Positions 997 to 11,095 of a stretch of DNA of 11,130 nt are shown piece by piece. Positions within the stretch are counted from its first letter, which is position 1; the number at the start of each line of letters is the position of its first letter. A program made the translations under genes and the position numbers. The stretch lies in IMG/VR virus record IMGVR_UViG_3300033463_000046. One strand, written 5' to 3'. The notes beneath the pieces were generated by a model. The model saw nothing but the letters and a program-made list of their open reading frames with translations, was not told where the DNA came from and searched no databases. This DNA comes from a virus (lineage: Duplodnaviria; Heunggongvirae; Uroviricota; Caudoviricetes).

Positions 997-3162
997 TCAA
1001 ATGTGTCTTACTTTGTCATTATATGGATTACCATCATGGATTTGAGCTTCTTCAATAGCAGTACGTCTATCCTCAATATCCATTTGTCTATCTTTATATG
1101 TTCTATCAGATTGAGCCTGGAACCATTTAACTTGATACTCTAATTGTATCTTGTTACCTTCAAGTTCAATCTTCTTTTCATTAAGTGTCTCAACCTTAGT
1201 TTGAGCCTTTTCTAACTCTTGTTGTAATTGCTGATTTTGCTTTTGAAGTTCTTCAACTTGTTGACTAAGTTGTTGAAGTTGATTATTTTCTTCCTTCTAA
1301 ATCTTCAATGCTTTCTGAACTTTATATTTAAGATCAGTAAGAGATTTAGCAGTTAAAGCTTCAAATATAATATCAGCTGGGAGAAGTTGACTCTTAATAA
1401 GTTCTGGAATAACTGCTTTAAGATTCTCTAACTCTTGGATAATTTCTGTACTTGCTGTAATGTGAATATCAAAATCAGTAAGTGTAAAATGTTCCGGGAG
1501 AGCTGTAAATATTCTCTAATATTTATCTCCAAGAATTATAGTTCCTGTAAGACCTTTCTTATATGCTATCTTAGCTTGATTAAGAGAATCAAGCAACATT
1601 TCGCAAACAATTAAATCCATTTGTTGGAAGTAATGTTTAGTAACAATATATGAGTTTCTTACACCTTGTTTAATATTTGTTACAGCATCCTATTGCTCAA
1701 TACCATTAAGTCTTTCTCTGAAGACTCCCGTAATAGAAGAAGTAGTTTGTTCTACAGATTGAATTGCAACTTCAATTGCTTGAACAGCTTGTGCTTTTAA
1801 GGTATCATCAAATCCATTAAAGATTGTGTTCATAGGAGCATTACCATTATCGTTACGTCCTTCTTGAGTTGTATCAATCCATTCAATACCTGCTTTCTTA
1901 TACGCTAACCATTTTTGAATACGTTCAGGCCATTTAACTCCAAGGTTAGTTGGAATAAGTGACATATCCATAATTGTACCGGAAGTACCACTATTAGCAA
2001 TTAAATTATCACGATAATAGATAAGTAAGTCATATCTATCTTGTAAGTGAGCACATTTAAGAATTAATGAATATGGTTTTCTGGAACGATTTAAGAAATA
2101 TACACCATTTACAGATAAATCACATTCATTAGGTCTATCTTTAGAACGAATAGCAGTTTTATCTTCTCCTCTAAGTATATATATTTCTTCTCCGATTCTT
2201 ATACAATTATAACGTTTCATTTTAAAATCGTCTCCTGTTTCTAACCATTCAACATCATAAACAGGAATTAAGCGGAATCGATGAGAAGCTGAATATTCAT
2301 CGTCAGGGTATCCAGGTATAGTATCAAAGTCTACATCTTCTTCCTATGGAGCAAAATCAGCATAGGAACGTCTATATACTGCTTGACCTTCATACCATTC
2401 TTCTTTAAGTTGTTTTAAATCCTCTTTTGGAATTTCCTTTCCAAACTTCGTAAGAATCTGACTCTTTGTCATCCATTTACGAACAACACATCTATATGAC
2501 TTACGTACATAAGGTGAATCAGGATTTCTATCAACAAAAGTATTAAGAGGATCTAAAACTTCTACGTCAATATTTTGACCACTCGGAGAAGCTTTAACCC
2601 TAAAGAATGTATATCCAGTTATAAGTAAATCTGTTAATAACTGTCTAAGTTTAGTGATAAAATCAATCTCTCTCGATTGCATAATATACTGAACAAGATT
2701 TTGTGCAGCTATTTCATACTAAGAAACAAAGGATTGATCAATATCCTAAACTATTTTATCTAGCTATTGTTTGATAGCCGCATCAGTAGGGTCTTTACCT
2801 TGTATCATCTAAACTAACGAATTAGTCAAATGTTCTTTTAAGAATTTAACAATACCATTAGTAATTTCAAGTTGCTTTTCTCTTGTTATTGCACTAATAG
2901 TATCAGAATCCTTGCATGAGATTTTTGGAATGATAGGAGTACCTAAATACTCGCCAACCAAAGCATCCACGTGCTTTTTTAATAAAGGTGTAAACTCTAC
3001 TGAAGTAGGACTACCTATTCCGAAGTTTTCCTCTAAGTATTTAAACTGTTCCGGATCTCTTTTACCGTTATAATAATTATAAGCCTTTTGGAGCTCATGC
3101 TTATCATAAACAAGTTCCGCAATGACTTCGTTCGTTTTGTCTACAAGTTCTTTCTCGCTCAT
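997..3162 (-). CDS. Portal protein, crAss-like (721 aa with TAG=Gln)
   Basis: Track ORFs 2809..3162, 2344..2682 and 1690..2220 share one frame. They join through 8 TAGs (2809, 2764, 2746, 2719, 2344, 1690, 1516, 1297) to a TGA at 997-999. The N-terminus YNYYNGKRDPEQFKYLEENFGIGSPTSVEFTPLLKKHVDALVGEYL and the Gln/Glu-rich C-terminal coiled coil ending HDGNPYNDKVRHI resemble crAss-like portals as I recall them. The gene lies downstream of TerL. Confidence 0.88.
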
Positions 3163-3439
3163 TGCAAATATTAATTGTATTACCTGGAACTTTCGTAGCT
3201 AAGTAATGTTTTACTTTATGTAATTTACGACTACGTATCTCCTCTCGCATAAACTCGAGGAACTTATCATCTGGTAAGTCGGCAATTAAAACTAAAGGAT
3301 TCTCTGACCTATCAAGATTCAAAGATACCTTATAGCCAATAGGGTCTAGGTCTTCAATTTTGATTTCACCTATAAACTCCATCTTGTACAACTGCCTAAT
3401 ACAGTCTAGTATCGCTTGTTTCAAATCTGTATGTGTCAT
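3104..3439 (-). CDS. Small hypothetical protein between terminase and portal (111 aa)
   Basis: Track ORF 3104..3451 starts at TTG. The first ATG is at 3439 (MTHTDLKQAILDCIRQLYKMEFIGEIKIEDLDPIG) and the gene ends in TGA. It overlaps TerL by 74 nt and the portal by 59 nt. Confidence 0.7.
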   Translation of the reverse strand: MTHTDLKQAILDCIRQLYKMEFIGEIKIEDLDPIGYKVSLNLDRSENPLVLIADLPDDKFLEFMREEIRSRKLHKVKHYLATKVPGNTINICNERERTCRQNERSHCGTCL

Positions 3440-5717
3440 CTTCGTTTTCAACCTTTAGTCTATACTCTACTTTCTATTTCTTAGGAATTATTCCAAAATG
3501 TTTAATTCCTTTTTCATCTTTCCAATAACCGAAGTCTTCAAAAGTAGCCTCATCATTTTCTACTTTAACAGGCTAACGGCCAGATAATTCTTGATCGGCA
3601 AGTTCCATCATACCAAATGCTGCTACAATATCGAACTTACCTTTATTTTCATCATTGTAACTAGTTAACTAGTCTAGTATTTCCTCAAACCATATATTGT
3701 GACAATAATCTTCTACATAATCTGCAGTTAAATCAGTATGCATTTCGATTATAACCTTTGTTGCAGGTGTACCATATGATTTAGTAGTACCGTATTTAAC
3801 ATCAGTAAGCGTAGCTCTTGGTCTTTTCATAAAGTATTGAAGTCCGTGATTTTCACGAGCCCAAGTAATCATACCCATACGGGTAGCCTCTATGTTTATT
3901 TTACAATTATAATATCTTGCAAGACACATAGCTATCTTATATGCTTCTCTGATATTTCCAGGTCTATCTTTATACATAGCTACTATTTGGGGTTCATTCA
4001 TTCCGAATGCTCTCCTCTTTATTACCATACAGAAATCAGATGGGTCTTTGGTTTCTTTTGAAGTTTGGTTTTGACCAATGTCAATACCATCGATACCTGC
4101 TACATATAGGTTTTCCATTTCTTTGTAGACTGGCATCTCAAATTCTTCTCCCTTCTCTTCCGCAATAGCCTTTTTCTTTTGCATTTCCTCCATGTATAAA
4201 TCAGACCAGACTGGATGTTCCAGAATTTTAACCTTACCATCAGGATGAGGTATCCATTTAATACCGTCGATATTTTCATAAGTATGTTTTCCGTTCTTAT
4301 AGAAATAATCTATATATCCTGATACTGGACGTGGTCCAATTTTATGTAATCTGATGGCTGCTAGTTGCTCAGAAATTTTTATCTTGTTAAACTTGTTAAC
4401 ACCTTCTAAGTTGAAGGCTTCTTCTGCAAACCAGCATCGCTCAGCGCATTTCTTATAATATTCTTCTGGAACTGCAAGTAGATTATCACGTTCTTCTTGT
4501 AATTCCTTTTTATATTCTTCTTGTTTACAGACTCCTCTATTATCCATAAATTCAGATCTAAGAGACTAAATAAAATATGGAATGAAGAATCCGCTTTCTA
4601 TATAAGTTCCGTCTTGTGTGTAATTATGTCGGAATGGTAAAACTTTAAAAGCTTTAGGATGATAATATATTTTTTTAAGTCCTTCAAGTGGAGCACCCAT
4701 ATCACCACCAGTTCCACCATATAACATAGTACCACGAGGAACACCTTGTACTTCACAAAGTTCTTGTCCCTGCACAATAGCTGTTGTAAGTCCAGGCCAA
4801 GAACCGGCCTCATCATAGATCAATAAATCAACACGATCACCACGAATATTAGATGGTTTAGCTGCATTGATTCCTATACATTCAGATTTAAATCCAAAGT
4901 CTTCAAATTGTCCTTGAACCTTCTATTGATAACCTGACTTCTTATGTAAGATTTTATCAATAATACGAGGTTCAAACATTCCTCCACCAGTACATGTATT
5001 TAAGAATGTAAGAGCATGATCAAACTTACTAAATGTACCATTTAAGAAAGTATCATTATAACAAGTAATCATTGTTCTACTTCTTCTAATTATAGTATAC
5101 ATACGAGCGGCAAGAGAAGCATTAATTTCTGAGAAACCAATAGAACGTGCTTTAAACAAAGCAGCATGCTTATGTAATACTCTTGCCATCTCTAAATAAT
5201 GGAAGAACATGTAATGTGACGCAAAGAAAATTGGAAAACCTTCATCAAGGCCAGAGCCTGATGCTTTAGTTTCATCTACGAGAGGTAATCTATAAAAGTT
5301 TAAGAAGAAATAATTATCACCTGTAATACGATAACCATTAACAGTCATTCCGTATTTACAGCGCTTGTATTGCTCAAGCCAGAACTCGTTATATCGTTTA
5401 CTACCTCTAAGATAAGTACAATATTTATGATCTTTTTCAAATACCTATCTTGTTTCTGTAAACCAAGTTGGATCAAAGTCTAATCCTTGAGTTTCTGTTA
5501 TTGGACGATAACCTGTAAGTTCGTAAGAGAGGGTAGGATCAAAGACTTCTATCTTCTAATCCTTTGGAACATCCCAATAATCTTTATTGGCATCTCTTTC
5601 CTCTCTTACTTGCTATACATATTCTCGTGCTTCCTGAGCATCTTCTTCTATTTCTTTATTTTGTACGTCATCGATAATATCCTGAATTTCTTCAGGTAAT
5701 TTTCTTTTGCGTGGCAT
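3366..5717 (-). CDS. terL: Terminase large subunit (783 aa with TAG=Gln)
   Basis: Track ORFs 4923..5348, 4566..4823 and 3669..4547 are in one frame from ATG 5717 to TGA 3366-3368, with 9 in-frame TAGs (5613, 5556, 5445, 4923, 4566, 3669, 3573, 3474, 3396). Motifs: Walker A-like LFKARSIGFSE, Walker B IRGDRVDLLIYDEAGS, coupling motif YGGTGGD, RNase H-like nuclease YVAGIDGID...IEATR...KFDIVAA. Confidence 0.95.
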
Positions 5718-6277
5718 TAGAAGTCTCCTGGATCAAATCCTTCTTCGATACCTGCTCTAATTGTAGATTGTTCTGTAAGTTCTTTCTTAACCTGTTCCTC
5801 TAAAGTTACTAGTTCTTCATGAACTTTGTGTAGTTGGGACATTTCTTTCATAACTTTTTCAGCAGAAAAAACAGGTTTACCATTCTAATCACGTTCATTC
5901 AAATCTACAATTGTATCGAAGTAATCTATGAATTGGTCTGCAGCACGTTTAGCAGACTCTAATAATTTAATAGATTTATTAGAATCTTGTAGTGCTCTAT
6001 ATTTTCTACAAGCCGCTCTAAAGATAGGGTCATTGAACTATTCTTCGGATAAGCCGGAATCGTTTAGAGCCTCCTCATGTTTCTCCTATTCAGTATACTG
6101 ATTATAGGGGCTCTTCCAATCGATAGCCAAAAATATATATGTAAATTCAGCCCAAGCTCTATCTTTAGTTTTTGACTTGTCTCTTTTTAATAAGTCGTTA
6201 AATTCTTTTACTAATAGTATTTCTGGTTCATTTAACTCTAGTACCTTCGTAAGGTTATTATACATAAACACATTCAT
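5717..6277 (-). CDS. Helical phage protein directly upstream of TerL (186 aa); candidate terminase small subunit
   Basis: Track ORF 6086..6277 continues through TAGs at 6086, 6038 and 5885 to TAA 5717-5719, forming a TAATG overlap with the TerL start. The CDS is solid; the TerS label rests on position, size and helical/charged character only. Confidence 0.75.
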
Positions 6278-6301
6278 AATCCTAACCAGTTTTATTGTTA
6301 A

Positions 6302-6928
6302 TCAAAATCCTATAATTCCACCAAATTGATGTTTCTTTAACTTAGAACCTCCGCAGTTCTTTCCGATACCCTTATTAATATGAGGTGGAGTTGTTTCTTC
6401 TGTAGTCTTATTAGAGGCTAATTGTTTCTCTCTATCCTTCATACCTTTTTTAGATCCAGTGGCATCTGCTAATCTTCCAATAGAATCTCCTGAAGTTTTA
6501 CCACCTGGTTGGAATTTAGCTTTTAATCCACCACAAGCTTTCTTCTTCTTAAAATCAGAAATCTCCTTCTTTCCATCTTTTACTTTTTCGCCTCCGGCGG
6601 CTTTTACAAATCTTTTCTTAGTTTGTCCACCACACTTATAATATTCTACTACCATTCCTTCAGGAGCATTACCTTTAAGAGTACGAATATAATTAAGTTT
6701 AGCACCAAGTCTAGCTTTAGGTGCTTGCTGCATTTCCTGCAAGAATTGACCCATAGCTTGTTCTAAAGCTTGTTCATTACCCTGTAATTGTTGGACATTT
6801 ATTCCTTTAGCTTGAGCCCATTTTCCGAAAGCAGTCATGATTTTCTTTTGTTGGTCTTGTGGAAGTTTAGCAATTTCCTATAAGATGCTGCCCTATGCAG
6901 GACCTCCCATTTGATATTTATTAATCAT
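6302..6928 (-). CDS. Basic, Gln/Lys/Gly-rich protein with repeated Kxx(x)GG motifs (208 aa)
   Basis: Track ORF 6302..6838 extends upstream through TAGs at 6893 and 6878 to ATG 6928 (MINKYQMGGPAQGSILQEIAK). This ATG forms a TAATG overlap with the upstream stop. The gene ends in TGA. Confidence 0.8.
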
Positions 6929-7149
6929 TACTATTCTACTTTAATAAGATCCTTAGTATTAAATACGGCTTCTTGCATTAATCCGTCTTTTGTAAACCAT
7001 CTACATTTAATACCCTTGAGTCCGGAACTATCTTTAAATAATGCCTGTTCTTTACGAAGAACAAGCATAACTGGAGCTACCATCGTTCCACGTTGTCTTA
7101 ATGTAACGCAATCTCCAGGTTTAAAATACACTTTCTCATTTTCTTCCAT
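6928..7149 (-). CDS. DUF2158/YodC-like small protein (73 aa)
   Basis: The pattern YFKPGDCVTLRQRG..APVMLV...CRWFTKDG...AVFNTKDLIKV matches the F.PGD.V.L..G.P.M.V...C.WF signature of YodC/DUF2158 proteins. The gene ends GAA TAG TAA, so read-through adds one residue before TAA 6928-6930. Confidence 0.7.
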
Positions 7150-7714
7150 AATCTTCTTTACGCTTTGTTAGATTTTCATTAACGATAGCCATGACTCTAT
7201 TTTCTGCAACAGTTACAAATCCTTGACGGAAGAAAGGAACCATAGTAGCACTAGCTATAGTATAAAAAACAACATCACCAGGTTTAACAAATTTGCATTC
7301 GTAGCCTGTCTCAATAACGGTACCTACCTTGATGAATTGTTCTTCTTGTTCAATCTCACCAGTCTCATTAGATTTATATTGAGGTGTCATTCCGCCTAAG
7401 TCAGTAATAATTCCGCCTTCCACTTTAACTTCTTGGAAAGGATTAATATCAAAAGGTTTAATAAGTAAATAACTTGTTCCTGGCATAATTTCTAAACCAT
7501 TAATGTCATGAGAAATTGCTCTAGCATATTCCATTAACGCTTCATTATGCTTTTCAAATTTATCATTAATTTTACTTACGCCTTCATTTAATTTTGTAGC
7601 TTGTTCTTCTAATAGCATATCATTAGCATCTTTACCATTCACAGTAAAGGATTTTCCTGTACCTTCCATCCCAATTAAGTCTTGGGCCAATTTTTCATTT
7701 TTATTCATACTCAT
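7136..7714 (-). CDS. GroES/Cpn10-like co-chaperonin with N-terminal extension (192 aa)
   Basis: The C-terminal ~120 aa show the Cpn10 pattern: IMPGTSYLLIKP, mobile-loop-like EGGII, KVGTVIETG, VKPGDVVFY, FVTVAENRVMAIV. Ends in TGA. No in-frame TAG. Confidence 0.75.
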   Translation of the reverse strand: MSMNKNEKLAQDLIGMEGTGKSFTVNGKDANDMLLEEQATKLNEGVSKINDKFEKHNEALMEYARAISHDINGLEIMPGTSYLLIKPFDINPFQEVKVEGGIITDLGGMTPQYKSNETGEIEQEEQFIKVGTVIETGYECKFVKPGDVVFYTIASATMVPFFRQGFVTVAENRVMAIVNENLTKRKEDYGRK

Positions 7715-7936
7715 TTACCATTTATCAATTATACAATGTTCATCTTCAACTCTTACTTTACTCTCTATAATACAACCACATTGATCACAAATATATTGAC
7801 CCATGAACATTATCCTATGTTCACATTTGTTACAATATTGTAATCTGGTGGTAGCCAAATCTTGATTTTTATTGAAAATATTTCTATATGTTCCAATTAT
7901 TATATGCTATATTTTAATTAATATTTTCTTTACCAT
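7715..7936 (-). CDS. Cys-rich putative Zn-binding protein (73 aa), not in the ORF track
   Basis: MVKKILIKIQHIIIGTYRNIFNKNQDLATTRLQYCNKCEHRIMFMGQYICDQCGCIIESKVRVEDEHCIIDKW has one TAG at 7907-7909 (codon 10). ATG 7936 overlaps the upstream stop (ATGGTAA), and TAA 7715-7717 abuts the ATG of the GroES-like gene. Confidence 0.8.
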
Positions 7937-8145
7937 TTTCCTGCTGGACATTTAGACTTAATATTAGCTATCTTCCACTTGAGATGACATCCGCATCCTT
8001 TTATATAACCATCTTTAGAATAAGTTGAAATATCATTTGTTTCCGGGTTTAAATAAAGTCCAGCATTACACATTTCATTAACTGTATCACATATTGGACA
8101 TTTTCTACAAATGATAGTCCTTTCAGTAACGTATTCAGGAACCAT
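7930..8145 (-). CDS. Cys-rich putative Zn-binding protein (71 aa)
   Basis: Track ORF with CRKC...C...GCGC...K......C..GKW; ends in TAA. It has the same Cys layout and KW terminus as 7715-7936. Confidence 0.8.
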   Translation of the reverse strand: MVPEYVTERTIICRKCPICDTVNEMCNAGLYLNPETNDISTYSKDGYIKGCGCHLKWKIANIKSKCPAGKW

Positions 8146-8147
8146 AA

Positions 8148-9062
8148 TTAATATTCTATTCTTTGACGTTTCTTTTTACTATCATCTAATATAGTCTTCT
8201 TTTTAAAGTATCCTAACATAAGTCCGACTTCTTTTTTAAGATATGGCATATGATATACTGTCATATGACCTTCATGATCGAAGTGAACTAAAACAAGATC
8301 CTCGATTTCATATTCTGAATTCAATTGTTGTATCATCCATGCATATGTAGAAAGTTGCATGGCATAATGCCAATAATTAACATCATCCAAATTATTAAGA
8401 GGATATTGCATCTTAACTGAAGTCTTTGTTTTAGTATTAAAAAAACTCTTAGTTTCAATTTTCTTATTAGTTTTCCAGTCAGCAATAGTAATTTTATTAC
8501 CTTTTTTAACTAATAAATCAATTTGCCCAGCTACAGCCATTCTTCCATCCTTAGTTACATAAGAAATCAGATATTCAGGATATACAGCATTCTCTATATC
8601 TAAATCAGTATAATCCTTTCGGCATTCAAACTTTCCTCCAATTTCATACTTAGATAAGTTAATGTCTTTAGGTTTGGAGTAAAAAGAGTTTTCTAATTCT
8701 GCATGAATCTTAGTTCCTCTTTCGCAAGATATCCTTTTCTCTAAGTCCCAAGCATCTAGTATAGCTTGTTGTTCTCTATTGAAATCATTGTCTGTAATAC
8801 CATAGGCATCAAGTAAACCTATGTTAAATTTCTTAGTAGCTAGTAATGCCTTTTTCTCTATTGCCCAATCTTCTTTAGGTAAGAGTTTTTCTAAAGCCTT
8901 ATAGGCTGACCAAAACTGCTCATCAAAAGGTTGGGTAAAAGAATGAATCATAGTAGTCACAGAAGTAAACTTCAGATCCGGATTAGTAACATCATAATAA
9001 ATATGAGCATCCTCTTCAAAAGCTATATTTCCGTTTTGTTTTGTAATTTTACTTTTATCCAT
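8148..9062 (-). CDS. PD-(D/E)XK superfamily nuclease (exonuclease/Cas4-like fold, 304 aa)
   Basis: Motifs FEEDAHIYY..SVTTMI, GTKIHAELE, PEYLI, AGQIDLL, IADWKTN and YAMQLSTY fit the E...D...(D/E)xK plus Q-x-x-x-Y layout of phage PD-(D/E)XK exonucleases. Ends in TAA. No in-frame TAG. Confidence 0.85.
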   Translation of the reverse strand: MDKSKITKQNGNIAFEEDAHIYYDVTNPDLKFTSVTTMIHSFTQPFDEQFWSAYKALEKLLPKEDWAIEKKALLATKKFNIGLLDAYGITDNDFNREQQAILDAWDLEKRISCERGTKIHAELENSFYSKPKDINLSKYEIGGKFECRKDYTDLDIENAVYPEYLISYVTKDGRMAVAGQIDLLVKKGNKITIADWKTNKKIETKSFFNTKTKTSVKMQYPLNNLDDVNYWHYAMQLSTYAWMIQQLNSEYEIEDLVLVHFDHEGHMTVYHMPYLKKEVGLMLGYFKKKTILDDSKKKRQRIEY

Positions 9063-9167
9063 TTGTCATAAATCATTAAATCATTAAACACATTTATCTA
9101 GAATTATTTTATACTTTTCAAGTATAAGCATATTATTTGTCGAGAACAAATCAATTATTATAATTAT
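9063..9167. promoter_or_regulatory. Divergent intergenic region; likely holds promoters/operators for both operons
   Basis: This is the only sizeable non-coding gap, and it lies between divergent starts (9062 minus, 9168 plus). It is very AT-rich and contains a direct repeat TAAATCAT x2 (9069-9084) and inverted repeats TTATACTT-ttc-AAGTATAA (9109-9127) and ATTTGT-cgaga-ACAAAT (9135-9151). No exact promoter consensus was identified. Confidence 0.55.
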
Positions 9168-10019
9168 ATGTTGAATTTAAATTTCGGAATAATTTTCGGC
9201 TTAGAAAATATCCCATCTTTTAAGAATGGATCTGGAATTCATATAAAAAAGAAAAATCGAGGAAAATTTACTAAGTCAGCAAAAGCAGCAGGAGAATCTG
9301 TTCAAGAACATGCTGCTCATGTATTATCAGATCCTAATGCTACTCCTCTATAGAAGAAGAGAGCCAATTTTGCTAGAAATGCTGCTAAGTGGAAACACCA
9401 ATAGGGAGGAACACTAAAGTTAACTCCTGAAGAATAGAATTATTTAGCTTGGAGTAAATTATCTCCAGAATAGAAACGTCAGAGAAATACTAACATAGCT
9501 AAGAGTTTTATTAATAGAGGACCTTCAGTAAGTAATTATTGGAATGCTGCTAAAGCATATTTCGGAGGTTTTAATCCTACTAATCCGAATTTAAATACAG
9601 GTAATGCTCCAGCTGTAATGATGCAAGCTGGAAGTGCTGCATCTTTCGCTAATGCAATATCCAGTGCACGTAGAGCTTACTCAGCTACTGGTCCAAATAA
9701 CGCATTTAGTCTTACTAAATTATGGAGAATGGTAAATAAAAAAGTAGGACGAAACTTGGACTCTGAAGAGTTAATAGATATTATTCATAGTACTCTTGGT
9801 GATGATGTTAGAATTGAAGGAGCTATGGGTAATAATGGTTTTCCGATAATAAGAATAACAGAAGAACAAGCTAATAATCTTGTTAATTCTTTAAGACCTG
9901 AAACTATGTTAAAGAAGGGTGGTAAAACCCATAAACCATTTGGACATAGAAGTATATTAGATAATGGATGGCAATCAACTAAATAGTTAAAGAATAAGAA
10001 GAATGTATATGGGAAATAA
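9168..10019 (+). CDS. Basic hypothetical protein with GG motifs (283 aa with TAG=Gln)
   Basis: Track ORFs 9168..9353 and 9618..9986 are one frame, joined by TAGs at 9351, 9402, 9435, 9471 and 9984 and ending at TAA 10017-10019. It contains GSGIHIKKKNRGKFT...ATPLQKKRANFARNAAKWKHQQGG and a C-terminal KKGGKTHKPFGHRSILDNGW. Confidence 0.85.
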
Positions 10020-10293
10020 ATATGGAAACATATATTATAATCCCGTATCAAGTTTACGAACTCCTCCAGAATAGAAAATTCCTTTAAGAACTATCTTCTA
10101 GGCAAAAAGTGGAGGATTTAGTTCTAAACGAGTATGTGGGGTTATAGGATGGCTAGTGCTTATGTTCTGCTTCGTATGGTGCGTAGTTAATGGATCACCT
10201 GCTCCAGAATTCTCAGTGGAGTTAGTAGGAGGATGTGTTGCACTATTAGGTGTAGATAAAATATCAGAAGCAATTAGTGGATTAAGAAGATGA
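10009..10293 (+). CDS. Putative holin / small two-helix membrane protein (94 aa)
   Basis: The frame runs from ATG 10009 (overlapping the upstream stop) through TAGs at 10072 and 10099 to TGA 10291-10293. It reads ...SSKRVCGVIGWLVLMFCFVWCVVNGSPAPEFSVELVGGCVALLGVDKISEAISGLRR, with two hydrophobic segments and a basic tail. The start is less certain than the C-terminal part. The holin function is inferred from size, topology and context. Confidence 0.62.
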
Positions 10294-10547
10294 AAAAATT
10301 ATTATTAATACTTGTTGCATTTTTAATATCCTGTAGTACTACTAAAATAGTACCAAAATATTAGAGTTATGAATAGTTAGATTCTATTTTTAAAGCTGAA
10401 AGGATTTTAACATATGATAGTTTACCTTTACAAGATTATGAAACTAAGAAATGGTTTTACGAATACTTCTTTATAAGAGATTCTTTAGTAATACGCTGGA
10501 TACCAAGAGGAGACAGCGTTCAAATATTTAAGAGGATAGACAAATGA
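10290..10547 (+). CDS. Lipoprotein (85 aa), possible o-spanin-like or host-envelope protein
   Basis: MKKLLLILVAFLIS-C has a basic N-region, a hydrophobic core and a lipobox Cys15. TAGs at 10362 and 10374; TGA 10545-10547; ATGA overlaps at both ends. Confidence 0.8.
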
Positions 10548-11095
10548 ATTTCGGATTAATTAAATCTAATTTAACTGGAGATGAAAAACATTTTTATTCT
10601 ACATAGCCTGTAAGTATGTAGTTTACACATAGAATAGATAAAGTATTTAATCAAGGTTCTGACCCTATCTGTGCTGCTTGTGCTACATGTAACTATTTAA
10701 ATTGGAGATATCCAGAGAAATAGTGGGATCCTTGGGAATTATTCCATAATGCTGGAGGTACTTCCGAAGGTATATCTTTTAAAGAGATTCTCTCTTATCT
10801 ACGAAAGAAAGGAATAATCCAAGAATATGCTTTAGTACATTCCGAACAAGCTTTAAAAACAGCTATTAGAGTTAATGGTCCTTGTCTCGGAGCTTTAAAT
10901 GTTTATAATTCTAATGATTGTAACTTCTGGGATGGAAGAAGGTTAGAAGGTGGTCATGGTATATCTTTAGTTGGATGGTAGAATGATGACTTCATTATTC
11001 AAAATAGTTGGGGAGAAGAGTGGTGTAAGAATGGTAACACTATACTACCTTCTAATAGATTTAGTTTATTATTAGAAACTTGGACAATAATCTAA
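10544..11095 (+). CDS. Papain-family (peptidase C1) cysteine protease (183 aa with TAG=Gln)
   Basis: The full catalytic layout is in order: VFNQGSDPICAAC (oxyanion Gln37, catalytic Cys43, with papain's 6-residue spacing), GGHGISLVGW (His138) and FIIQNSWGEEW (Asn154). TAGs at 10604, 10619, 10721 and 10979; TAA 11093-11095. Confidence 0.9.

Follow-up and report, generated by a model that had tools for sequence, protein, structure and literature searches.

Gly-Gly peptides at the ends and module joints of two basic proteins of a crAss-like phage: candidate joint or docking signals of putative virion cargo

The 11,130-nucleotide stretch of viral DNA analysed here (IMG/VR record IMGVR_UViG_3300033463_000046, Caudoviricetes; hereafter the window) is part of a crAss-like phage that reads TAG as glutamine. 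It encodes two basic proteins, at 6302-6928 and 9168-10019, in which a short peptide ending in Gly-Gly (GG) recurs, and the second of these heads an operon that closes with a papain-family (C1) cysteine peptidase. The question raised by this locus is what the peptides are for. A sequence-only reading had proposed that they are either cleavage sites or a capsid-loading (virion-targeting) signal, and had itself called the link to the peptidase speculative. We obtained indirect support for the virion-targeting half of that proposal and none, beyond shared operon membership, for cleavage by the C1 peptidase. We favour the interpretation that the GG peptides are joint or docking peptides of cargo-type proteins carried inside the virion, because the motifs are conserved, constrained on both sides of the Gly-Gly, predicted to be disordered, placed at module joints and protein ends, and shared with a homologue that is a proven cargo protein; we regard it as about evenly poised between right and wrong. 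Among human gut phages, crassviruses are the most abundant; they pack megadaltons of proteins that are injected ahead of the DNA. A short conserved peptide at the borders of exchangeable modules, present in two or more unnamed families with about 1,000 clusters each, would be a concrete candidate for the loading or docking signal of crassvirus cargo.

Conserved Gly-Gly motifs in the 6302-6928 protein

The first motif protein and its motifs are as follows.

6302-6928, minus strand: P0001, 208-aa basic protein, read with TAG as Gln
6902-6919, minus strand: KYQMGG, residues 4-9, conserved at the N-terminus of the family
6626-6643, minus strand: YYKCGG, residues 96-101, turn of a predicted beta-hairpin
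6590-6607, minus strand: VKAAGG, residues 108-113
6500-6544, minus strand: KKACGG-LKA-KFQPGG, residues 129-143, one copy of the tail repeat unit
6317-6364, minus strand: GKNCGG-SKLK-KHQFGG, residues 189-204, the most conserved tail unit, four residues short of the C-terminal end

All seven motifs of this protein, and the three of the 9168-10019 protein (KHQQGG, KAYFGG and LKKGG), stand where the sequence-only reading had placed them, and both proteins are basic, as it had described them (pI 10.0 and 10.3). Translation of the first gene with the standard bacterial code (table 11) yields a product of only 178 aa (6302-6838), and reading TAG as glutamine moves its start to 6928 and extends it to 208 aa. 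The extension contains two TAG codons, 12 and 17; relatives have CAA or CAG at the aligned positions, which shows the N-terminal KYQMGG to be genuine.

Chance expectation was taken from 20,000 composition-preserving shuffles of each protein, and the enrichment over shuffled sequence that the earlier reading had wanted tested was found for patterned forms of the motif but not for the dipeptide. In the 6302-6928 protein there are seven GG dipeptides for 4.2 expected (p=0.10, no enrichment over composition), against seven instances of K-x2-3-GG for 1.26 expected (p=0.0003), eight of [KR]x1-3GG for 2.1 expected (p=0.003) and three of K[FYH]QxGG for 0.005 expected. The 9168-10019 protein has three instances of the loose pattern for 0.8 expected (p=0.06) and a single K[FYH]QxGG for 0.001 expected.

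Conservation in homologues, whose lack the earlier reading would have taken as a refutation, proved strong. Across 74 homologues of the 6302-6928 protein with a mean column identity of 24%, glycines belonging to six of its seven motifs reach 90% conservation or more (G8, G9, G100, G101, G113, G134, G194, G203 and G204), KFQPGG being less conserved than the other six. Among the roughly 90 products of five related loci, the strict motif is confined to homologues of this protein, proteins of the divergent operon and one site in an exonuclease. Sequence logos built from 1,444 and 294 instances have K at position -4 (40-44%), F, Y or H at -3 and Q, K or E at -2, followed by I, V or L at +2 past the GG in about 50%, so that constraint lies on both sides of the dipeptide. 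Many proteins start or stop at a motif, with 0-9 residues left to remove. No description of the motif was found in the literature searched.

From the N-terminus on, the 6302-6928 protein comprises the KYQMGG tag, then a helical domain and a zinc-ribbon hairpin in degenerate form, and lastly a tail rich in Lys and Gly that ends KHQFGG-IIGF. The tail repeats the unit K-C-G-G-x-K-x-K-[FH]-x-x-G-G, whose copy number differs among relatives (CKEFGG repeats). The hairpin follows the zinc-ribbon pattern CPEG...GG..CxxC in 165 of 258 family members and has lost it in the window's copy, where YYKCGG is predicted to be the structural turn of a degenerate hairpin. The AlphaFold2 models described here are of relatives, P0074 and P0143, rather than of the window's own proteins. 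In P0074, a homologue encoded on a 140-kb contig, the helical domain spans residues 17-87 (pLDDT 74-84) and leads into a beta-hairpin with the YYKCGG turn; pLDDT stays under 50 in the N-terminal tag, in the Lys-rich tail and at the C-terminus. In the models of the two relatives, motifs lie in linkers predicted to be disordered, where modules meet or the protein ends, beside confidently modelled modules.

An exhaustive profile search placed 1,024 representative clusters in this unnamed family, whose gene always lies two genes upstream of the large terminase. Some members reach 550-900 aa and carry the domain at their C-terminus, and in these long members a KYQMGG-type motif ([FY]-[QK]-x-G-G, often twice) stands directly before the same helical domain. 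The two long forms that were checked occupy the same syntenic place, before the 186-aa protein and the terminase, and one of the two has a peptidoglycan-binding domain (PG_binding_1) and hydrophobic segments. We infer that the 6302-6928 protein is a DNA-associated internal protein.

Module A and its homology to crAss001 cargo protein 1

The second motif protein is built as follows.

9168-10019, plus strand: P0002, 283-aa basic modular protein, read with TAG as Gln, first gene of the divergent late operon
9222-9392, plus strand: module A, residues 19-75, three-helix, homologous to gp45 at about 365-430, ending ...NAAKW
9393-9410, plus strand: KHQQGG joint, residues 76-81, between module A and the second module
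9552-9569, plus strand: KAYFGG, residues 129-134, inside the second module
9909-10016, plus strand: C-terminal module, starting LKKGG-KTHKPFGHRSILDN, 85-97% conserved in relatives

The sole solved match of a module A profile is crAss001 gp45 (7QOG_M, E 1e-9, gp45 residues 365-430). BLASTP of the 9168-10019 protein against gp45 gives 40% identity over 57 aa (gp45 371-423, E 5e-7), and through an intermediate sequence the BLASTP match to gp45 reaches 7e-21. The GG that trails module A aligns with G427-G428 of gp45. This protein is a cargo protein found in virions by mass spectrometry and cryo-EM (Bayfield et al. 2023; PMC10172136); in the published virion model its portal-bound domain is the contiguous stretch 425-552, starting at A425, residues 214-245 are modelled on the inner wall of the tail barrel, and peptides from the intervening stretches were detected (PMC10172136). 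Because the modelled chain begins at residue 425, before G427-G428, gp45 is uncut at the GG that aligns with the module A joint. Aromatic-GG peptides flank both resolved segments, SAYGG(-PLE) before 214-245 and AFGG at 425-428.

Beyond the shared module and the GG at the aligned place, gp45 likewise has aromatic-GG peptides and a Lys-rich GG tail, and both it and the window's protein are late, basic and partly disordered. They differ in size (842 aa in gp45, 283 aa in the window) and in the position of module A, which is internal in gp45 and N-terminal in the window; the window's protein has neither the PF25725 domain nor the glycine-zipper segment, and it is a presumed virion protein, gp45 an observed one.

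The first ~80 residues of the 9168-10019 protein recur at 70-90% identity in about 1,000 protein clusters with quite different bodies. Where module A is placed C-terminally or stands as its own open reading frame (ORF), the protein stops at KWKH, immediately before Q-x-G-G. The second module heads proteins of other phages as MQTAAGG..., and the C-terminal KKGG-KTHKPFGHRSILDN module keeps its 85-97% conservation even though the bodies before it differ (112, 379 and 847 aa). Because module A, the second module and the C-terminal module are all bounded by GG in relatives, the GG peptides mark module starts.

Hydrolase-type domains (Phage_lysozyme2, Glucosaminidase, YkuD, M15 or lysozyme) occur in 21 of 106 aligned module A members; the window's own protein has no Pfam match at E up to 0.1 and no recognisable hydrolase or other enzyme domain. 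In the AlphaFold2 model of P0143, module A is confident (pLDDT 87-97), linkers 74-91 and 106-110 fall below 50, the stretches with KIHKPxGHRSILDN and KKHQKGG are disordered and the catalytic domain is confident. The best fold match of that catalytic domain is the phi29 tail lysozyme gp13, a weak one (E 0.016, TM 0.64). Three Suoliviridae genomes encode a 72-83-aa module A protein between the portal and major capsid genes, following an HExxH peptidase gene in two of the three, and a 576-aa glycine-zipper protein of cr127_1, encoded among giant genes, starts with module A. These findings offer a first functional handle on module A, which lies outside Pfam coverage and is labelled a transcriptional regulator in GenBank: the module A mini-proteins of MT774375.1, MT774379.1 and MT774382.1 (L001, L024 and L025) bear that label. 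By eye, module A may be ribbon-helix-helix-like, with a strand (IHIKKK) and two helices around a G-x-S turn.

Close relatives differ in the middle of the operon and keep the terminal peptides. The variable part lies at 6632-7771 in L012, 5006-7549 in L008, 7109-9531 and 10001-13327 in L016, and 2159-6701 in L018. The variable bodies are 232 to 1,108 aa long; motifs judged by eye make them kinase-like (DVHPGNFG), HD-like, HExxH or NlpC-like, and they have terminal peptides in common, for example GYIRQKNNHPISFD... at the N-terminus and PIGITTYGFKNK at the C-terminus. In L008, module A (7537-7770) and its 847-aa partner (5006-7549) lie in separate overlapping frames, which may be due to gene fission or a frameshift; the joint there has decayed to KYQQGD, in the same phage that carries a remnant of the peptidase.

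The C1 peptidase and its operon

The plus-strand operon continues from the 9168-10019 gene with three further genes.

10003-10293, plus strand: 96-aa membrane protein with a strong hydrophobic segment and a weaker second one; IFQAKSGG precedes the first
10290-10547, plus strand: predicted 85-aa lipoprotein (MKKLLLILVAFLISC...)
10544-11095, plus strand: papain-family (C1) cysteine peptidase, 183 aa, last gene of the operon

The membrane protein is predicted to be holin-like by its shape only. The peptidase is complete and has no signal peptide, both as first read: it scores 29.0 bits against PF00112 (curated cut-off 20.7), its highest 19-residue hydropathy is 0.65 and its N-terminus is not hydrophobic. 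Across 38 members the catalytic residues Q37 and C43, spaced by six as in papain, H138 (within GGHG) and N154 (within NSWG) each show at least 90% conservation, up to invariance. Among solved structures the best matches are cathepsin B chains; the enzyme starts about 36 residues before the active-site Gln, without the inhibitory propeptide of typical C1A enzymes. In Pfam it matched only Peptidase_C1 and, below threshold, C70, and the C5, C16 and C63 families were not matched. Judged by its sequence, it is a true member of family C1 and looks active. A 36-38% identical relative of its C-terminal half is encoded by Prevotella Lak megaphages (e.g. MK250019.1, 139877-140221).

The claim that the operon ends in the peptidase stands, because a convergent Cpn60 gene comes next in the relatives whose flank could be read (L012, L016 and L017). 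In the window, L012, L006, L016 and L017 the genes for the membrane protein and the lipoprotein are followed by that for the peptidase, which closes the operon. Its family is narrow, with 41 clusters against about 1,000 for each motif-bearing family. In L008 the syntenic gene encodes a catalytically dead remnant of 106 aa, without the Cys half and without the His. No peptidase was found in 19.8 kb of L020, syntenic operon end included, where the operon ends with a different protein terminating ...KKRGG; L008 and L020 both retain motif-rich proteins. In five complete crassvirus genomes that encode module A with its GG flanks, neither the family profile nor PF00112 identified a C1 peptidase, in a search whose PF00112 control did return matches, and the peptidase profile found no match in the IMG/VR records (fragments) behind L008, L010 and L005. 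A predicted complex of the peptidase with the C-terminal 52 residues of the 6302-6928 homologue on the same contig scored 0.00, which is neutral on binding. In Thermoanaerobacterium phage THSA-485A a weakly related C1A peptidase directly follows a GH25 lysozyme gene, a neighbourhood that hints at a role in lysis. Given its holin-like and lipoprotein neighbours, the C1 peptidase of the window is more likely a lysis accessory or effector.

Role of the Gly-Gly peptides

We propose that both proteins are late, basic, largely disordered proteins of the kind packed inside crassvirus virions as cargo or ejection proteins, and we infer that both are present in virions. They would consist of small folded units, linked to one another and terminated by a brief conserved peptide with Lys, an aromatic residue or His, and Gln/Lys/Glu at its first three positions, then a variable residue, Gly-Gly, a second variable residue and an aliphatic one. 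This peptide would be at once a flexible joint and a signal for docking or addressing. Such a peptide could bind repeated sites in the particle interior, of which the portal wing and the tail barrel are the presumed ones, and the strings of modules would be loaded and later threaded out unfolded. Support for virion targeting comes indirectly from the homology to gp45, from the occurrence of module A at the head of hundreds of proteins with tail-lysozyme-type and other enzyme domains, and from the linker positions of the motifs.

Several observations pull the other way. Terminal enrichment of the motifs is seen only in the 6302-6928 family and for that reason may reflect one inherited architecture. 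No homologue of that family was found by its profile in crAss001 and four other classified crassvirus genomes. The 9168-10019 protein has no Pfam match to PF25725 (crAss_CARG1) at E up to 0.1, a domain that scores 2.3e-66 in gp45 itself and was matched weakly (2.4e-4) in one of 106 module A relatives; a single-sequence phmmer search with gp45 424-555 likewise found no match in the module A set, and Pfam scans of ten long members did not recover the weakly matching one. The holin-like membrane protein and the lipoprotein of the operon fit a lysis cassette. Peptidases of other classes recur beside or fused to module A, and some form of processing is therefore possible.

That the processing enzyme is the neighbouring peptidase strikes us as quite improbable. 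On that account the GG motifs would be cleavage sites at which the co-operonic C1 enzyme cuts the basic proteins and the modular cargo after Gly-Gly, the precursors yielding short basic peptides and free modules, in the head or after injection, and the system would be a phage counterpart of adenovirus core-protein maturation or of the processing of packaged polyvalent proteins. It draws on a peptidase with conserved catalytic residues at the end of a late operon in the window and four relatives, on motifs in disordered linkers at module borders, on module A ORFs that end right before Q-x-G-G, on tandem units that each end in FGG and look like multi-copy peptide precursors, and on the proposal that peptidases process packaged multidomain proteins (PMC5512222). 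The only tie found between the peptidase and the motifs is nonetheless shared operon membership, and co-occurrence, which the sequence-only reading had wanted checked, is imperfect: motifs are kept beside the dead remnant of L008, in the 19.8 kb of L020 and in five complete genomes in which no C1 peptidase was found, and the 41 clusters of the peptidase family contrast with about 1,000 for each motif family. In gp45 the aligned GG lies within a contiguous chain modelled in virions (PMC10172136). Motifs at extreme N- and C-termini leave only 0-9 residues to remove, and the aliphatic residue past the GG is conserved as well. C1 peptidases, moreover, usually favour a hydrophobic residue at P2 rather than Gly. 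The GG peptide is thus probably not a cut site of this enzyme.

If the plus-strand operon were instead a lysis cassette, the module A protein would be an endolysin or another envelope-acting protein, the 96-aa protein a holin, the lipoprotein spanin-like and the peptidase an accessory, and the GG peptides would be flexible basic linkers or elements that bind the envelope or peptidoglycan, with no connection to the virion. We consider this unlikely. It accounts for the membrane protein, the lipoprotein and the hydrolase fusions, agrees with the gene order from holin-like protein to lipoprotein to peptidase, with PG_binding_1 in a long form of the 6302-6928 family and with the THSA-485A neighbourhood, and a TAG-rich operon suits lysis genes as well as virion genes. 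It does not account for the homology to gp45, in which module A is part of a virion cargo protein by mass spectrometry and cryo-EM (PMC10172136), or for the location of module A between portal and capsid genes in Suoliviridae. Nor are the variable operon bodies (kinase-like, HD-like or HExxH, up to 1,108 aa) lysis-like; the 9168-10019 protein lacks a recognisable hydrolase domain, and the best fold match among its relatives is a tail-associated lysozyme, not an endolysin. It is rather improbable, finally, that the motifs have no shared function and are structural beta-turns of the zinc-ribbon knuckle type together with inherited Lys/Gly-rich low-complexity sequence. The composition-level count of GG alone, the Cys ligands around the predicted YYKCGG hairpin turn in relatives, and the occurrence of a KWK...GG.. 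string as a blade turn in unrelated beta-propellers would all agree with this, but a 6-8-residue pattern that recurs in two families without detectable mutual similarity and in operon proteins besides, at ends and joints and conserved where the flanks vary, would not. This explanation holds for the zinc-ribbon turn and not for the remaining motifs, to which we apply the joint or docking interpretation.

Comparison with known systems

Adenain matures the adenovirus core proteins at (M/L/I)xGG-x, and other viral cysteine proteases also cut at GG. The likeness to the present locus lies in basic proteins with several xGG sites, here presumed to be associated with DNA in the virion, and in a virus-encoded cysteine protease of papain fold. 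Adenain, coronavirus PLpro and ASFV pS273R belong to families C5, C16 and C63, however, against C1 here, and the motif of the window has an upstream K and an aromatic residue rather than the aliphatic P4 of adenain sites, and persists without the protease. In phage T4 a short N-terminal capsid targeting sequence on internal proteins is cut after Glu by the prohead protease gp21. As proposed here, a short N-terminal peptide addresses otherwise unrelated proteins to the head interior; in T4 the sequence is N-terminal only, whereas the GG peptides are also found at C-termini and internal joints. Double-glycine leaders are 15-30 aa long, have spaced hydrophobic positions and are cut by the C39 domains of ABC exporters, and they resemble the present case in pairing a Gly-Gly motif with a papain-fold cysteine peptidase. 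No ABC transporter or C39 gene was found in the window or its relatives, the N-terminal tags here are of 6-9 residues with no 15-30-aa leader, and the motifs are multiple and internal.

The polyvalent proteins of phages and conjugative elements, for which peptidase domains or genes have been proposed as processing factors (Iyer et al. 2017; PMC5512222), offer a further parallel. They are strings of swappable modules that travel with the DNA, as is proposed here, and are associated with peptidases, and the content of operons of the window's type likewise varies between close relatives. The 9168-10019 protein consists of three modules, and among its relatives are fusions of module A with hydrolases or with an HExxH domain. 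In the present system, unlike the polyvalent proteins, the modules are often spread over several small genes, the enzyme is a separate C1 peptidase rather than a fused zincin, and the modules are bounded by a specific GG peptide, of which no mention was found in the passages of PMC5512222 that were consulted.

Genetic code, gene order and further observations

Under table 11 the portal and large-terminase genes are fragmented. If TAG is read as Gln, each becomes one continuous frame, of 721 and 783 aa with 8 and 9 TAG codons respectively, and with TGA read as Trp (code 4) the fragments stay unjoined. Because TAG=Gln joins these frames and TGA=Trp does not, we assign the window to a crAss-like phage with TAG recoding. 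The large terminase shares 44% identity with the nearest GenBank phage record and 27-29% with those of classified Crassvirales. Megablast of 5.4 kb against GenBank phages, tblastn of the 6302-6928 protein against the same set and an exact look-up of the window's table-11 product each gave no match.

The minus strand carries, in order, an exonuclease, two small Cys-rich proteins, a GroES-like protein, a 73-aa protein, the 6302-6928 motif protein, a 186-aa acidic protein, the large terminase and the portal. The divergent plus-strand operon consists of the 9168-10019 motif protein, the membrane protein, the lipoprotein and the C1 peptidase. No tRNA was found in the window, and no tandem DNA repeat underlies the motifs. 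TAG recoding is uneven over 997-11095 on both strands: within 7136-9062 the exonuclease gene, one of the two small Cys-rich genes and the GroES-like gene are free of TAG and the other small gene has one, and the genes from 6928 down to the portal and those of the whole plus-strand operon have 1-9 each. This pattern is compatible with a recoding confined to late genes. Both motif-protein genes are TAG-rich, a late-gene mark that sets them apart from the block from exonuclease to GroES.

The two small genes overlap (7715-7951 and 7930-8145, minus strand) and encode Cys-rich proteins with CxxC pairs that look like zinc fingers and are kept in all relatives. At 7136-7714 on the minus strand lies the gene for the GroES-like protein, of 192 aa with weak Cpn10 and PHROG 3188 matches. 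In relatives a Cpn60 of 491-493 aa is encoded convergently to the C1 peptidase (L012 3648-5126, L016 14175-15650 and L017 4255-5736), so that this phage lineage carries its own chaperonin pair, with the GroES-like protein in the window and Cpn60 in the relatives.

Directly upstream of the large terminase, at 5717-6277 on the minus strand, is the gene for the 186-aa acidic protein, which matches the function-less PHROG 16390 and may be the small terminase. It is 91-98% identical among relatives, and the neighbouring motif protein is 56-69% identical over its full length. In the distant relative L020 the large-terminase region (12695-16219) is interrupted around a LAGLIDADG-type gene, the likely result of an intein or of a homing endonuclease insertion.

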